Shown in pieces: positions 9,132 through 16,032 of a stretch of DNA of 32,000 nt (its first letter is position 1; every line of letters starts with the position of its first letter). Made by a program: the position numbers and the translations under genes. The DNA lies in NCBI GenBank assembly GCA_048882505.1, contig JBHLRO010000020.1:1-32000 (forward strand), written 5' to 3'. The stretch comes from Candidatus Thorarchaeota archaeon (GTDB lineage: Archaea; Asgardarchaeota; Heimdallarchaeia; Hodarchaeales; Hodarchaeaceae). The notes beneath the pieces were generated by a model that searched no databases, was not told the origin of the DNA, and worked only from the letters and a program-made list of their open reading frames with translations.

Positions 9132-9716
9132 TCACCTTTCAGGTTTATTTCGAGGTTTCAAATCCCAAACCTTAATCGATTCATAGATAAACGCAACTGT
9201 TCCAATTATTAATGCGAATAAAAATAAATTTGCTCCTAGGCTCATAACGAAGTCATCTCCCAAGATAAGAAATGAAACTAGGTAAATTAGAAATCCAATC
9301 AGAAAAATAACCAGGTAAACTGAGAAACGGGGAATCATCATATTCCCGACTGTCACATAGAAACTTAGGAGCCCTGATTTGACTTTTCCATTCACAACAT
9401 ATTTCTCACCTGTTTCATCCTTTGAAACTCGACCAGTCTCGATCAGCTTTTTTATTTGATAATACGCGAGTCCAGGGGAAGAAAAGTTAAGAGCTTGATG
9501 AATTTCACGTATACTTGCAGGGCCTTTTTCCAAAAGGTACCAGTATACCTGTAATGTTTTTCCTTGGAGGAGCTCATCAGGAAAAGATGAATTAGTGGTT
9601 GTGGTTATTTTTTCAACCTTTTTAATTGTCATACTTCTTGTTTCTTCTGTTGAAATTTCTATGATCCCCTGTTCCTCTTTTATCTTCTCTTTTTGGTGCT
9701 CTTTTGATGATTTCAT
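9132..9716 (-). CDS. Winged HTH transcription regulator with two C-terminal TM helices
   Basis: LQGKTLQVYWYLLEKGPASIREIHQALNFSSPGLAYYQIKKLIETGRVSKD is an ArsR/TrmB-like wHTH; followed by PRFSVYLVIFLIGFLIYLVSFLIL and LFLFALIIGTVAFIYE TM segments; ATGA overlap with the upstream SBP stop. Confidence 0.85.
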   Translation of the reverse strand: MKSSKEHQKEKIKEEQGIIEISTEETRSMTIKKVEKITTTTNSSFPDELLQGKTLQVYWYLLEKGPASIREIHQALNFSSPGLAYYQIKKLIETGRVSKDETGEKYVVNGKVKSGLLSFYVTVGNMMIPRFSVYLVIFLIGFLIYLVSFLILGDDFVMSLGANLFLFALIIGTVAFIYESIKVWDLKPRNKPER

Positions 9717-11899
9717 TGGTCTTTGTCCCCTTTCCTTATATATTTTGTGACTTTTTGGTTGCGTACGATCGTGAAACTGATGCTCAATATCATAACCAAG
9801 GAGATTCCCAATACAACCGGAAAAAAGTTAAAGGATAGTTCCTTAACAAAGTCTCCTAACCGTAATAAATTTTCTCCTCCTTGTAATTGCACTTCAATAA
9901 ATCTGAGGGATGAGTTCAGATTTACTGTTTCTAGCTCAATCCAAGTACCTTCAATATTGTCATATTTATACAAAACTAATGTTTCCCCCTTCCTATTACC
10001 GATCTCCTCAGGATCATAATAGGAACGAAAAGAATAAGTACGCTCTTGATCAGCAACTTTAATCTGATAAAACTTGCCTTGGCCAGCGTATTGAGGAAGA
10101 AACGTTTCTAACTTACGATCCATTTGAACAGAGTTGACCATAAGTGGATTATTATCTTCATTCGTTATTATTGCATCAATATAGGGAAAATAGAGCGATT
10201 CAGTTTGCATCAAAACATTAGAAACTGTCTTTGATGGAAATACCCGAAAATCAGAAATCTTAAAGTTAATTGTAGCATTATTCTGTGGATGGGTATAATC
10301 AAACTGAAAACGCAGATTTGAATCGAACGTGTAGTATGAGGCTGAATCACTAGATTGGTAAAACGTGAAAATCTCTTTCTGAATGAGAAGAAAAGGACAT
10401 TCTTCTTGAGCTAGTTGTAAAACCTTTTGATAATAAAATTCCCGTTCTTGATGCACTGGGGTGGTTTGCCCCTCTATGATTAGAGTATCCATTAGAGGAT
10501 TTGAATATCCCCCATAATTTCTTTCCCCTTCAGTATGCATCATTTGCTGTGTTATGTAAGGATCAGTTAGGACATACGGCATGATTCCGATATCAAACTC
10601 ACCAGTTTCCAACATTTCCGTATAAGAAGGATCCTCAACGATTTCGCATTCAATCCCCACTTGTTCAAGGGATTCCTGGATAAAGGATGCATGAAATCCA
10701 GCCGCAGGTACTCTTACCAATTTCAACGAGAAACGAGTACCATCAGTTCCTCTGACATACCCCTCTTGATCTAATAGACTATTGGCCCTTTTTAAATCGA
10801 AGGGGTACCCTTCGACAGTTGAGTCATAACCAAAAGCCCCCTCTGGTAATAAGGAACGCAGAGGTTTGCGATTATCCTCTAAAAACATTTGTGTTAATCT
10901 TACATTGTTTACTGCGTAGTTGATTGCTTTACGGACATTTTTATTTGCCAATTCAGGACGATCAAAGTTGAAAACGCCAACATAGGCATATGGTGAATCA
11001 AGAAGTTCTATTTTCTTCCAAGAGGGATCATTGACAGTATCAATATACGATCCAAAGCCTACAAAGTCGAGTTCGTGCTGATTGATGGCTTCTATGTACT
11101 CCGCGCTAAAGGCTTCATAGAAATAATAATGAATTTCTTTAAAGGGAGCAAGGCCCTCATGATACTGGTTAAACCGATAGAATTGCAAAAAGGATGAAGT
11201 AGACTCATCTAAGTTAACGTAATAGGGGCCTGTTCCTATTGGAGAAACAAAGTCTGTTCCATTGAAACTATTAAGGGATGCAATTTTGAGATATGGAAGT
11301 AAGTTTTGAAATGGCGCAAACGGTTCGGAAAAATGAACTTTGACCTCAAACTCACTCACTATCTCAACAGAAGGATTTACCCATGATGTATTTAAAGAGT
11401 TTAAAAACGCATTATTGAGGTCCAAAAAGCCTCTTTCCATATTTAATGCTACCGCCGAGGCATTGAATCTAGAACCATCATGAAAAAAGATATCATCTCG
11501 AAGATCAAACGTCCAATGTTTACTGTCGTTCGTTACGAAGAATTGAGTGGCGAGAGTGGGTAAAATCTCGGCTTTATCCTCATCATATTCTACAAGTGAT
11601 TCATAAATTAACGACATTGGCATAAATTTGTAATAATTGAGAGGATCAAGGTTAAGTACAGAGCCCTCCAGTAGGATATCTTCACCCATACGTAGGATTT
11701 CAGGCGGCTCAGATTGATCTATTTTTGAAGGAATTGAATGGAGATTTAGCTGGTTTTGATTTGTTAAAACCGGAGATCTGGACGAAATCTCTCCTGAAAT
11801 TGTCTCGTGAATTACCACAAGCAATATGACAAGGATTATGAGCTGCCTTCTGTCCATTACTTTGATCCTGCCTTGGTTCCTTTTTTCAAATTCTCCCAC
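9713..11899 (-). CDS. Family-5 solute-binding protein (canonical order) with extra C-terminal domain and C-terminal TM anchor
   Basis: LNLDP...YESLVEY...PTLA...WTFDLRDDIFFHDGSRFNASAV, IGTGPY, NKNVRKAINYAVN, ANSLLDQEGY, LEQVGIEC, REFYYQKVLQLAQEECPFL; then a ~150-aa beta-rich domain (LYKYDNIEGTWIEL), a TM and a basic tail. Confidence 0.9.
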   Translation of the reverse strand: MGEFEKRNQGRIKVMDRRQLIILVILLVVIHETISGEISSRSPVLTNQNQLNLHSIPSKIDQSEPPEILRMGEDILLEGSVLNLDPLNYYKFMPMSLIYESLVEYDEDKAEILPTLATQFFVTNDSKHWTFDLRDDIFFHDGSRFNASAVALNMERGFLDLNNAFLNSLNTSWVNPSVEIVSEFEVKVHFSEPFAPFQNLLPYLKIASLNSFNGTDFVSPIGTGPYYVNLDESTSSFLQFYRFNQYHEGLAPFKEIHYYFYEAFSAEYIEAINQHELDFVGFGSYIDTVNDPSWKKIELLDSPYAYVGVFNFDRPELANKNVRKAINYAVNNVRLTQMFLEDNRKPLRSLLPEGAFGYDSTVEGYPFDLKRANSLLDQEGYVRGTDGTRFSLKLVRVPAAGFHASFIQESLEQVGIECEIVEDPSYTEMLETGEFDIGIMPYVLTDPYITQQMMHTEGERNYGGYSNPLMDTLIIEGQTTPVHQEREFYYQKVLQLAQEECPFLLIQKEIFTFYQSSDSASYYTFDSNLRFQFDYTHPQNNATINFKISDFRVFPSKTVSNVLMQTESLYFPYIDAIITNEDNNPLMVNSVQMDRKLETFLPQYAGQGKFYQIKVADQERTYSFRSYYDPEEIGNRKGETLVLYKYDNIEGTWIELETVNLNSSLRFIEVQLQGGENLLRLGDFVKELSFNFFPVVLGISLVMILSISFTIVRNQKVTKYIRKGDKDQ

Positions 11900-13202
11900 T
11901 AGTTTGCTTTATCTTTTCGGATGGTCGTAGACGTCGAAGACGAATTATTAGAACTAATGCACCCACAACGAAGAAGAAAATCTCTCCAATTTGAAAGCCA
12001 GAAGCAGAAACAGAAGTTTCCATGGCTTTGATCAGCCAAAAATCGTCATTTCCTGCACCTTTTGATGCTGTTCCACCTACTACCATAAAGGTACCATCAG
12101 TATTCAGAAGAATGGCCAATCCCGTATCATCACTTGAGCCTCCTAGTGCTTTATGCCATAATTCATTCCCTGAGGCATTTGTTTTAACTACCCATGCGTC
12201 AGATTGTCCTGCTCCAAAAGAATTGGTTTCTCCAGTCAAAAGAAAATCCCCATTCGCGGTTTCAACTAAAGCTTTATCGCAGCAAGAATTATCCCAGCCA
12301 AAGCCACCGTAAGTTTTAATCCAGTCAACCGTGCCATTTTCAAGCACTTTAACTAAAATAAAGTCATTACTTCCCGCAGCACCATGTAAATCGGATCCTC
12401 CCGATAACAGATACGCCCCATTAGAAGTTTGAATGATATTGTTGAAAAAATCATGACCTGCTGTACCAAACGGATTCTTCCATTCCAGGTGTCCGGTACT
12501 ATTAGTTTTATGGATTCCGTGACCGCCACTAAGGGCAAAGCCGCCATCTGTAGTTTGAATTACAGACAGTCCCCGTCCAGCTCCTAACGTCCGATTCCAC
12601 GCTACTTGTCCCGTGCTATTCACTTTCAATAACCAGATATTCTGACCACCCGTGCCATAAGACCACGTTGCACCGGTCAGAATAAAGTCTCCATCTGAGG
12701 TAGAGACCGCTGACCGAAAAATTTCATCCGCAGGCCCTCCATATGAGTTATTCCATAGATGATTGCCCTGGGGGTCAACTCGGACTATCCAAAAATCTTT
12801 CCCCCCTTTACCAAAGGATTCAGTATGGCCAAGCATGGCAAATCCATGATCTGCGGTCTGTAAGACGACAAAACCATGATCGTTGTCTGACCCACCATAG
12901 GTGTTATTCCACAATACAGCGCCATTCGCATCCGTTTTTATTAACCAAAAATCTTGCCCCCCTTCTCCAAATGAGTTTGTCGTGCCGAAAACAGCAAACC
13001 CACCATCCGAGGTATGAATAACGGTTGAACCCCAATCATCTGCACTGCCCCCATAGGTTTTCTCCCACACAACTCCTAAAGTTTCTGCTTCTACCCTTGT
13101 TATTGTGTTTGTAATTGCAACTACTCCAGCGGTTCCAGTCAAAATACTAATCACGAGGCCACTGACGAGTAATTGTGTTTTCAAATTAAATTTCTCGTTC
13201 AT
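11886..13202 (-). CDS. Secreted, membrane-anchored 7-bladed beta-propeller surface protein (paralog of 7637-9004)
   Basis: Signal peptide, seven repeats (WEKTYGGSADD...DFWLIKTDANG), and C-terminal ASGFQIGEIFFFVVGALVLIIRLRR resembling a PGF-type CTERM anchor; 14-nt overlap with the SBP start. Confidence 0.88.
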   Translation of the reverse strand: MNEKFNLKTQLLVSGLVISILTGTAGVVAITNTITRVEAETLGVVWEKTYGGSADDWGSTVIHTSDGGFAVFGTTNSFGEGGQDFWLIKTDANGAVLWNNTYGGSDNDHGFVVLQTADHGFAMLGHTESFGKGGKDFWIVRVDPQGNHLWNNSYGGPADEIFRSAVSTSDGDFILTGATWSYGTGGQNIWLLKVNSTGQVAWNRTLGAGRGLSVIQTTDGGFALSGGHGIHKTNSTGHLEWKNPFGTAGHDFFNNIIQTSNGAYLLSGGSDLHGAAGSNDFILVKVLENGTVDWIKTYGGFGWDNSCCDKALVETANGDFLLTGETNSFGAGQSDAWVVKTNASGNELWHKALGGSSDDTGLAILLNTDGTFMVVGGTASKGAGNDDFWLIKAMETSVSASGFQIGEIFFFVVGALVLIIRLRRLRPSEKIKQTSGRI

Positions 13203-13288
13203 AGCTCGTATCTTCCTTCAATTGGATCGAATTCTATCAGAAATTAATATTTTTATCATAAGAATGAACTAATTGGCTTTTTTCGGTC

Positions 13289-13303
13289 TATTTAAACTTT
13301 TCC
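13289..13303 (-). promoter_or_regulatory. Candidate archaeal BRE+TATA promoter of the 13202-9132 operon
   Basis: Minus strand reads GGAAAAG-TTTAAATA (purine-rich BRE-like element then TATA-like box), about 90 bp upstream of ATG 13202. Confidence 0.55.
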
Positions 13304-13316
13304 ACGGTTGTTTAAA

Positions 13317-13373
13317 GTACTAACGTTAGTACATGGTTATACATTCATCTTTGTTCTGTACTAACGTTAGTAC
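13317..13373. promoter_or_regulatory. Two identical perfect 16-bp palindromes GTACTAACGTTAGTAC (putative tandem operators)
   Basis: Copies at 13317-13332 and 13358-13373, 41 bp apart start to start, just upstream of the candidate BRE/TATA. Confidence 0.8.
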
Positions 13374-13584
13374 TCAAAAAAGTAGGAATTCCTCAAACTG
13401 CCCATACGAAGATGATACCTGAAATTACAAGCCAGACTCATGGAAGATGAAGCTGTATTGTCAATTTAAAATCATTCTAGTCTCGTGTTACCGGGCGGGG
13501 GCGGCTTTTGGCAGAGGAGCAAAAAATATTTAGGAAGTATGTTGGGATGAAAACCAAACCTACTAAGGAAGATGAGGTGGTAAG

Positions 13585-13710
13585 ATGGGCAAGAAAGCAA
13601 AGATGACCAGCAAGGCGGCACGACGTATTCAAAGCACGGCAGATCGGTCAGGCAAAAATCGAGATTTTAAGGCGCGTGCTATGAGAGCGGCCGCAAAAAG
13701 AAAGAAATGA
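13585..13710 (+). CDS. Small basic SMP/LEA-like protein (41 aa), not in the ORF track
   Basis: MGKKAKMTSKAARRIQSTADRSGKNRDFKARAMRAAAKRKK*; GAGGTG SD at 13574-13579; MT-x-x-AA-x-RIQS...F-x-ARA-x-x-AAA pattern of seed-maturation-protein-like repeats. Confidence 0.8.
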   Translation: MGKKAKMTSKAARRIQSTADRSGKNRDFKARAMRAAAKRKK

Positions 13711-14481: not shown

Positions 14482-16032
14482 TTAATCTCTTAAGACGTGT
14501 GGAGAAATCCACTGCAAAGTGTGTTTCTGAAACCAATCTATTTGGGGAGTAATTGGGGTATAGTAACTAGTAATAGGGAAGACATTCCAGCCTAGATCGT
14601 TTTTTATCCATTTATGAAGAGGAGCAGTTAAATGGGTAAGTACCAGGATAAAACGCGGTGTGAAGAATAAATCAGAAAAGGGGAGCAGCTCCAGAAATCG
14701 TTGTAATTGGAAGAGAGGAAGAGAAGGCAAAATTAAGCAGTAATAATCAAGTGAAAATTCCTGTACAAGGTACCAGGATACGAAGCCAACATTCATCACA
14801 CGATTGTAGTACAGTTGCTTGAGCAGACCAATTTCTGCAATAGTAAGTTGCTTTACAGACCTGTCGGGTCTTATTCGGGAAATTAAAGGAAGGACGGAAT
14901 AATCATAATTGGGAGGAATTTGGCAATAAAGTTCAATGATCTGTAGAGGGAGTGGATGTTGTGTAAAACTCCATCGGGAGTTAAAAGGAGGGGGATAGAA
15001 GAGGGAGGATGGCCCTTTCTGGACGCCTTGAAATGTCTGGGAAGTCAATTCGGGAGTTATACGTCGTAGCATTGTTATTGATGGTTTGGTCCAGCCTGTA
15101 TTTGCGCGATATAAACGTAAAGAAGCACTTTTTTGAGAAGTTTGTACCTTAGCCATTCCAGCGAGACTCAGGAGATCATTCTCTTCGCAGCGCTTAAAAT
15201 ATGACATTAACTGTTCGATGTTATGGTCAGGCACTAGAAAAATGCCTAGATAGCTGTGTGGTTGATCGCTTACACGATATACATTGCTTGTGCGAAGTGT
15301 GGTATTCCTTGCTTGATTGCAGTCAATGACTGATTCTATGGTGACTGAAGGATCGATTTCGAATCTTACAATTAAAACCTCTAATCCAAATGCTGGAGGA
15401 TACAAATGAAAGAACCAGCGAGCATCTATCAAAGCAAAAAGGCGTTTCAATTCAGGTGTGGAGTGGAGCTTGGAAATTATCGCCTGTTCATCCAAATAAA
15501 CCCGTAATCGGGTAGGATCCATGGCATAAATCCCCGATTCAGTTATAAATGAATAAACAGCTTCAAGGATTCGAATTTGTTCGTCAGTGAGCGATATTAG
15601 ACGCCTATTACTCTCATATTGTAATTCTTCCCAGGCAAAATCTCCAAACGATATACCACGTCGAGTTAATTGGTAAATTCCGCTCTTTGGAGTCGCTCCA
15701 CGAAGAATATGGATCATATAGGTATAAAATTCATTGGCATGATACTTGAAGGTGTTTAATAGAAGAAGATGGGCGTTTTTTAGAAAAGTTCCGATACACC
15801 AGTAGAATGGGGTCGTTAAATAAATTTCTGATCCCAAAATCTCCTGTCGAAGGTTCGTCATACGTTGGGCAAGTCGCTTTCGGTCGTAGTTTGCTTCCTT
15901 AAAGTGATTGAGAACTTGGAGAAGTTTGTTCAGAATCAACTGGTCTTCCGGTGGATATTGAGCAAAATTTTCGGGGAGGTGGTTCAAAATGGTTAGAAGC
16001 GACTGTTGTAGACTTTCCCGAACTCGTGCCAA
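14482..16032 (-). CDS. Large hypothetical protein, possibly tandem Lrp/AsnC-like (wHTH + RAM) modules
   Basis: 516 aa; LTDEQIRILEAV helix, PPAFGLEVLIVRF...YLGIFLVP...LMSYF ferredoxin-like pattern, and a second copy (AEIGLLKQLYYNRV...SLDYYCLILP) ending DWFQKHTLQW. Fold assignment is an inference. Confidence 0.55.
   Translation of the reverse strand: MARVRESLQQSLLTILNHLPENFAQYPPEDQLILNKLLQVLNHFKEANYDRKRLAQRMTNLRQEILGSEIYLTTPFYWCIGTFLKNAHLLLLNTFKYHANEFYTYMIHILRGATPKSGIYQLTRRGISFGDFAWEELQYESNRRLISLTDEQIRILEAVYSFITESGIYAMDPTRLRVYLDEQAIISKLHSTPELKRLFALIDARWFFHLYPPAFGLEVLIVRFEIDPSVTIESVIDCNQARNTTLRTSNVYRVSDQPHSYLGIFLVPDHNIEQLMSYFKRCEENDLLSLAGMAKVQTSQKSASLRLYRANTGWTKPSITMLRRITPELTSQTFQGVQKGPSSLFYPPPFNSRWSFTQHPLPLQIIELYCQIPPNYDYSVLPLISRIRPDRSVKQLTIAEIGLLKQLYYNRVMNVGFVSWYLVQEFSLDYYCLILPSLPLFQLQRFLELLPFSDLFFTPRFILVLTHLTAPLHKWIKNDLGWNVFPITSYYTPITPQIDWFQKHTLQWISPHVLRD

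Follow-up and report, generated by a model that had tools for sequence, protein, structure and literature searches.

Two identical, perfect 16-bp palindromes, GTACTAACGTTAGTAC, positioned 41 bp apart in front of a four-gene operon of an Asgard archaeon, probably form a paired upstream operator for the membrane-tethered wHTH protein that the operon itself encodes; this protein is the candidate binder, and it would act in positive autoregulation. A sequence-only reading of this DNA had proposed an operator in activator position for the wHTH-TM protein of the operon, a proposal now supported by a phylogenetic footprint, by 41-bp pairing of the sites in 3/5 species, by a 19-20-bp distance to the TATA box in 22 promoters, and by palindromes that are specific to regulator clades. 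The window, that is, the whole 32-kb stretch of DNA analyzed here, is C20:1-32000 of a 4.3-Mb, 83-contig genome, and the features in it that matter for the argument are the following.

13358-13373, no strand: operator site 2 (distal), perfect 16-bp palindrome GTACTAACGTTAGTAC, read from the sequence
13333-13357, no strand: spacer of 25 bp between sites 1 and 2, which cannot be aligned between species
13317-13332, no strand: operator site 1 (promoter-proximal), perfect 16-bp palindrome GTACTAACGTTAGTAC, read from the sequence
13297-13307, minus: putative BRE-like, purine-rich GGAAAAG with CCGT 5' of it (block CCGTGGAAAAG), assigned by conservation
13289-13296, minus: putative TATA box TTTAAATA, a consensus archaeal TATA and part of a conserved 19-nt block
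11886-13202, minus: first operon gene, encoding a secreted protein of 438 aa with beta-propeller repeats, a signal peptide, and a membrane anchor at the C terminus
9713-11899, minus: SBP_bac_5 solute-binding protein (SBP) of 728 aa, with a signal/TM segment at the N terminus and a TM anchor at the C terminus
9132-9716, minus: candidate palindrome binder, a winged-helix protein of 194 aa that ends in two TM helices
7637-9004, minus: second surface protein with beta-propeller repeats (455 aa), encoded 127 nt downstream of the wHTH gene

Twin palindromes in front of a surface-protein operon

The claim that two exact copies lie 41 bp apart was verified at coordinates 13317-13332 and 13358-13373; the start-to-start distance of 41 bp corresponds to ~4 helical turns, which puts both sites on one helix face. 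The pair had been described as not due to chance, and the counts agree. No further match to GTACTAACGTTAGTAC with up to three mismatches was found in the 32-kb window and none in 100 shuffles. The 4.3-Mb genome contains 76 perfect 16-bp palindromes (66 expected), among which GTACTAACGTTAGTAC is the only one present twice and the only one that forms a pair within 100 bp. The genome-wide motif scan that the sequence-only reading had asked for, run at up to two mismatches, yielded one site besides the pair, GTACTAACGTCAGTAC at C1:310750, which matches at 15/16 positions. An assembly artefact, which that reading had named as a possible refutation, was ruled out by matching contigs from a second sample (spanning 13214-13581 with 0 differences) and from a different study (spanning 13220-13377 at ~96% identity with 7 differences), both of which carry the element.

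The minus strand at 13289-13307 reads CCGTGGAAAAG-TTTAAATA, which by its sequence appears to comprise a BRE and a TATA box and is near consensus for a core promoter. A BRE/TATA element at 13289-13303 had been correctly placed in the sequence-only reading; its gap to the proximal palindrome measures ~13 bp. Site 1 ends exactly 20 bp 5' of the TATA box, a distance of 32 bp center to center, or ~3 turns, and both sites lie wholly 5' of the BRE without overlapping it. If the TATA box is centered near -27, transcription would start near position 13266 on the minus strand and the leader would be ~63 nt long, with the centers of sites 1 and 2 falling near -58 and -99, respectively. A genome-wide positional count of TATA-like words 5' of long ORFs showed no sharp peak and gave no calibration of the TATA-to-start distance.

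The palindromes precede a minus-strand unit of four genes, encoding the 438-aa, SBP_bac_5, wHTH, and 455-aa proteins. The stop of the 438-aa gene and the start of the SBP gene overlap by 14 nt, and the stop of the SBP gene and the start of the wHTH gene overlap by 4 nt. No transporter genes are adjacent to the 728-aa SBP_bac_5 gene. The 455-aa protein has a homolog in the same position in two related species, G011 and G014. The only close ortholog of the 438-aa gene (71%, G019:C197, L029) stands alone, without an operator, SBP, or regulator, and in the window's genome the 438-aa gene seems to have been inserted downstream of the regulated promoter, ahead of the SBP gene. We also considered the 438-aa gene as a homolog of the 314- and 406-aa genes that stand behind a second operator pair in species G021; these are not homologous.

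An AlphaFold2 model of the 194-aa protein contains a confident wHTH (residues ~53-108, pLDDT 82-88) and a TM helical hairpin formed by hydrophobic helices at 116-152 and 160-184, with ~10 residues between the wing and TM1. No Pfam match to a HAMP-like or sensor domain was found between the HTH and the TM helices. The protein scores 22.8 bits against the Pfam TrmB family PF01978, below the gathering score of 25.6, and several homologs that are 50-55% identical to it carry PF01978 in precomputed annotation. A Foldseek search against the PDB returned nothing at E <= 0.001, with weak generic wHTH matches (BigR/ArsR, MecI, AspA, and Z-beta), and a PDB sequence search returned nothing significant. 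Complex prediction with two copies of the wHTH protein gave a score of 0.07, which counts neither way. Homologs of the regulator are labeled Hodarchaeales, Hodarchaeota, Heimdallarchaeota, or Promethearchaeota, which places the genome among the Asgard archaea.

The palindromes across species and paralogous modules

When the genus, represented by 22 species genomes, was searched for GTACTAACGTTAGTAC with up to one mismatch, five genomes had the motif: the window's own (G000) and those of G009, G011, G014, and G021. All four other species have it 103-115 bp 5' of the first start codon of a homologous SBP-wHTH operon, with 14-16 of its 16 positions kept (0-2 mismatches) and with the proximal core ending 20 bp before the TATA box, as in the window, while the encoded SBPs and wHTH proteins are ~40% and ~50% identical, respectively, to those of the window. 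The sequence-only reading had held that absence of conservation 5' of orthologous operons would count against it; conservation was found in each of these four species. G009 has a pair at 41 bp, with one and two mismatches, and G021 has two 41-bp pairs, of which one precedes its SBP gene and the other a set of two genes further upstream. The 41-bp pairing is thus present in three of the five species (G000, G009, and G021), with spacers that cannot be aligned. A single exact copy, without the distal site, is present in G011 and in G014, so pairing is not obligatory. Together, these comparisons show that the element is a conserved cis-element and constitute a clear phylogenetic footprint with kept helical phasing. 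A DNA search with the intergenic region in 40 relatives matched a microprotein gene and not the operator region; the operator homologs were found by pattern searches and protein-anchored searches.

The family of which the 194-aa protein is a member has 1-12 paralogs per genome in the genus. At each of 25 wHTH-2TM loci (that of the window plus 24 from relatives), an SBP_bac_5 gene or a fragment of one comes immediately before the wHTH gene, often overlapping it. The 19-nt block nG(A/T)TAGAAA(A/G)n-TTTAAATA is recognizable in 24/28 upstream regions of SBP operons, and in 22/22 readable paralogous promoters, where the conserved BRE/TATA block takes the form GAAAAG-TTTAAATA or rGAAAr-TTTAAATA, a palindromic core of 16-17 bp stops 19-20 bp short of the TATA of the block. 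A second site lies a further 21 bp upstream in other clades, where it is often the stronger of the two, and is 41 bp upstream or missing in the GTACTAACGTTAGTAC clade; the distances of 21 bp, 41 bp, and 32 bp to the TATA center are all whole numbers of helical turns. The element has three traits of an archaeal upstream-activating operator: an inverted repeat of ~13-18 bp, a constrained distance to the BRE/TATA, and a phased extra site. In addition, a CGATAG, CCGTGG, or GAGTAG block (within 13297-13307 in the window) is kept across the paralogous promoters directly 5' of the GAAAA BRE-like stretch, and it may extend the BRE or provide another contact site.

The palindrome itself varies by module. 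Besides GTACTAACGTTAGTAC in the window's clade, we found GTTCTAACGTTAGAAC, GTTCTAAAGTTAGTAC, GTACAAACTTTTGTAC, GTACGAAATTTCGTAC, and GTTCTA-N5-TAGAAC. A maximum-likelihood tree built from 24 family members groups the five proteins with GTACTAACGTTAGTAC in one clade (support 98/96), which is sister to a clade with GTTC...GAAC palindromes, and the inner CTAACGTTAG is common to both. Residues of the recognition helix vary in parallel with the palindrome (G-L-A-Y-Y-Q-I-K-K versus G-L-V-A-Y-Q-I-N-K; that is, YYQIKK versus AYQINK). Sites with up to one mismatch to GTACTAACGTTAGTAC occur only in the 5/22 genus genomes that encode a wHTH protein of this clade. The window's genome has a single SBP-wHTH module, and GTACTAACGTTAGTAC is correspondingly unique in it apart from one site. 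Outside the genus, the frame GTWC-N8-GWAC is found 5' of 22/31 Asgard family operons, including members whose partner is not an SBP, compared with 1/34 Bathyarchaeia or Thorarchaeota family members; its background in the window's genome is 0.013 per 300 bp. Simple palindrome searches 5' of the distant Bathyarchaeia and Thorarchaeota members showed no enrichment.

These data could fit a wider reading, which we hold tentatively: Hodarchaeales-type Asgard archaea might possess up to about a dozen orthogonal, kinase-free transmembrane modules per genome, each combining a binding protein at the surface with a small wHTH protein tethered to the membrane and with a palindromic upstream site of its own (GTWC-N8-GWAC, 19-20 bp from the TATA box), and with a simple code between recognition helix and operator that insulates the modules from each other. 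If this is true, the two palindromes represent the cis side of that code in readable form.

Further sites lie at other genes. The site at C1:310750-310765 (L003 1501-1516), a 15/16 copy, has a TATA-like box on one side and, on the other, the ATG of fpg, the gene for formamidopyrimidine-DNA glycosylase. The 18-mer at C1:310750, TGTACTAACGTCAGTACA, begins 7 bp after the TTTATAAA box and ends 2 bp before the fpg ATG, which, judging by its sequence context, would be a repressor-type position for a leaderless transcript. The fpg promoter is shared only with G016, where the corresponding sequence is GTACCGAGGGCAGTAC (11/16) and where this regulator clade is absent. Chance alone would give roughly 0.07 such sites in the genome, as estimated from base composition, and the site is a candidate for a recruited target that may also be a chance match. 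G009 has an unlinked copy with 20-bp spacing and the promoter block before a gene for a secreted WD40 plus beta-lactamase-fold protein, 2.9 Mb away (L170, G009:C1:4044000-4049000). In G021, a near-copy with the promoter block precedes a gene for an HGSNAT-type membrane acyltransferase (L171, G021:C173:1-2400). The regulon looks envelope-related. An HGSNAT-type gene is also located 3' of the regulator gene in the G009 operon.

Proposed mechanism and alternatives

In the mechanism that we propose, one wHTH dimer would occupy each 16-18-bp palindrome, such that two dimers sit on the same helix face. The proximal dimer, three turns 5' of the TATA center and immediately 5' of the BRE, would sit where archaeal activators recruit TBP/TFB, and the outcome would be positive autoregulation of the surface-protein operon, comprising the beta-propeller proteins, the transporter-less SBP, and the regulator. 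The signal would presumably come from the co-translated surface binding protein, through the membrane. The element, its conservation, its fixed geometry, and the way it varies with the regulator clades are observed, and from them we infer the identity of the binder, its dimeric and cooperative binding, the transcription start, and activation.

The sign of regulation is where a competing explanation fares best. The same protein at the same sites might instead exert negative or concentration-dependent autoregulation, in which contacts between dimers, wrapping, or looping hinder TBP/TFB. The BRE and TATA box are close enough to consensus that the promoter looks strong unaided, a feature less typical of promoters that depend on an activator; at its own control region, Ss-LrpB turns from an activator into a repressor by cooperative binding and wrapping (PMC2995911); and the fpg site demonstrates that the motif can occupy a repressor-type position. 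However, archaeal sites described 5' of the BRE/TATA, where both palindromes lie in full, go with activation, and the strict 19-20-bp distance suits protein-protein contact with the initiation factors. We therefore regard negative autoregulation as rather unlikely, although it deserves to be taken seriously.

Positive autoregulation by the wHTH protein also presupposes that this protein, and not another regulator, binds the palindromes. The operators have diverged between modules while their symmetry and position were kept, which requires module-specific binders, and the wHTH protein, as the only module-specific DNA-binding protein in the modules, is favored as the binder for that reason. Duplication of a module passes on gene and promoter together, so a match between operator class and protein tree alone does not prove the binder. 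The sequence-only reading had offered a second candidate, the Lrp-like protein encoded at 14482-16032, and binding by this neighbor, a 516-aa tandem Lrp/AsnC-like protein, or by an unlinked factor appears improbable. By Atlas structure the 516-aa protein resembles archaeal families with tandem Lrp/AsnC HTHs (TM ~0.6), and Lrp-type dimers bind inverted repeats of 13-17 bp. But the candidacy is not supported by comparison with the other motif-bearing genomes, in which homologs of the protein are never near the motif: in G009, G011, G014, and G021 they are on other contigs or megabases from it. The closest ortholog (56%) belongs to G016, a genome without the motif; the 516- and 487-aa neighbors of the G009 operon are unrelated to the window's 516-aa protein; and a shared factor would not account for each paralogous module having its own palindrome. 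The gene for the 516-aa protein is on the minus strand and the protein has no Pfam match; its family has up to ~10 paralogs per genome in the genus.

That the element acts through nucleic-acid structure or recombination, whether as a hairpin or terminator in RNA, as a cruciform in DNA, or as the end of an inversion or transposon, is very improbable: a strand through both copies does fold into a 19-bp stem (-26 kcal/mol, z = -6.3), and one contig from a different study has the spacer inverted between the two copies, but such a stem is the automatic result of two identical palindromes (a single copy folds weakly, at -5 kcal/mol), the sigma-70/terminator scan found no T-tract terminator, there is no Rfam family match, only one copy is present in G011 and G014, the G021 copies show no mutual compensation, the fixed TATA distance is left unexplained, and the element does not behave as a mobile or dispersed repeat, with three sites in 4.3 Mb and no transposase nearby. 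Rfam, tRNA, and sigma-70/terminator scans yielded nothing relevant.

In the contig with the inverted spacer, the reverse complement of 13334-13345 is joined directly to site 2 and its right flank; another contig of that same run has the spacer in the reference orientation. The inverted spacer would set the flank gttcT beside site 1, and this flank resembles the gctcT flank in G009, G014, and G021. Recombination between the copies could be the reason why both are perfect in this genome.

Known systems and neighboring features

Operator-bound, membrane-tethered wHTH regulation of the kind we propose is most closely paralleled by ArnR and ArnR1 of Sulfolobus acidocaldarius, membrane-bound HTH activators with two C-terminal TM helices that activate genes for surface structures. 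Their ArnR boxes in the flaB promoter are two 15-bp inverted repeats between -43 and -84, both of which are needed for binding (PMC6396743). The 194-aa protein resembles ArnR in its domain layout, an N-terminal HTH plus two C-terminal TM helices, and the two promoters are alike in having two inverted repeats of 15-16 bp 5' of the BRE/TATA, here at about -50 to -107 from the predicted start. ArnR differs in that a HAMP-like and a sensor domain separate its HTH from its TM helices, domains that the 194-aa protein lacks; in the window, the role of sensor apparently falls to a separate SBP_bac_5 protein. The ArnR boxes also differ from the GTACTAACGTTAGTAC pair in being adjacent and in their sequence, TCGAC-N5-GTCGA, and the lineages differ as well (Asgard here, Sulfolobales for ArnR).

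The geometry of the sites recalls that of Ptr2, LysM, and Ss-LrpB, which use a position-constrained dimer site just 5' of the BRE together with helically phased auxiliary sites (PMC2995911). Like those, the element has a constrained palindrome 5' of the BRE and further sites on the same face at whole turns. Unlike the Lrp-type activators, the candidate binder is membrane-anchored and has no RAM/Lrp domain; moreover, the spacing is two or four turns here versus two to three for those activators, and the gap to the BRE is ~13 bp versus a few bp.

OxsR, a TrmB-type protein with a single wHTH, activates from sites 5' of the BRE/TATA and represses from 3' sites (PMC9426492). The 194-aa protein may be similar in having a wHTH of the TrmB/ArsR/MarR type (given its weak PF01978 match and the presence of PF01978 in some homologs), and the position rule of OxsR matches the operon sites (5') and the fpg site (3') described here. 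OxsR is soluble and thiol-sensing with a CG-rich motif, whereas the protein considered here is membrane-tethered and its presumed target is an AT-rich palindrome of 16-18 bp.

Our literature searches for a paper on this SBP-wHTH-palindrome system found none. The GTACTAACGTTAGTAC element provides a defined DNA target for an expanded, uncharacterized family of membrane-tethered regulators. Because the promoter geometry is rigid and the operator variants track regulator clades, a few binding and swap experiments could establish the route from surface to promoter, the specificity code, and the contact of a membrane-bound factor with TBP/TFB. The same layout with other palindromes in related genomes makes a little-known surface-to-gene signaling system directly testable.

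In bacteria, ToxR, CadC, and TcpP provide a likeness to the candidate regulator, as each is a membrane-tethered DNA-binding domain that acts directly at promoters without a kinase. They differ in having an OmpR-type wHTH, a single TM helix, a periplasmic sensor of their own, and direct-repeat sites, and in working with bacterial RNA polymerase.

Two neighboring features deserve description. On the same contig, a gene pair whose last gene encodes a distant family member of 156 aa (C20:66547-67017) is preceded by repeats at C20:65830-65984, consisting of TGTTCA, TGTACG, and TGTTCA at 10-11-bp steps plus a TGAACA...TGTTCA inverted pair, an arrangement of sites for a distant paralog that is unlike the palindrome layout. 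Within the window, 13585-13710 on the plus strand encodes a 41-aa Lys/Arg/Ala-rich microprotein behind a GAGGTG ribosome-binding site. Its ORF is probably independent of the palindromes; the DNA of the microprotein is 77-87% conserved in G002, G007, and G008, and it has an apparent AT-rich promoter-like stretch of its own near 13521-13533.
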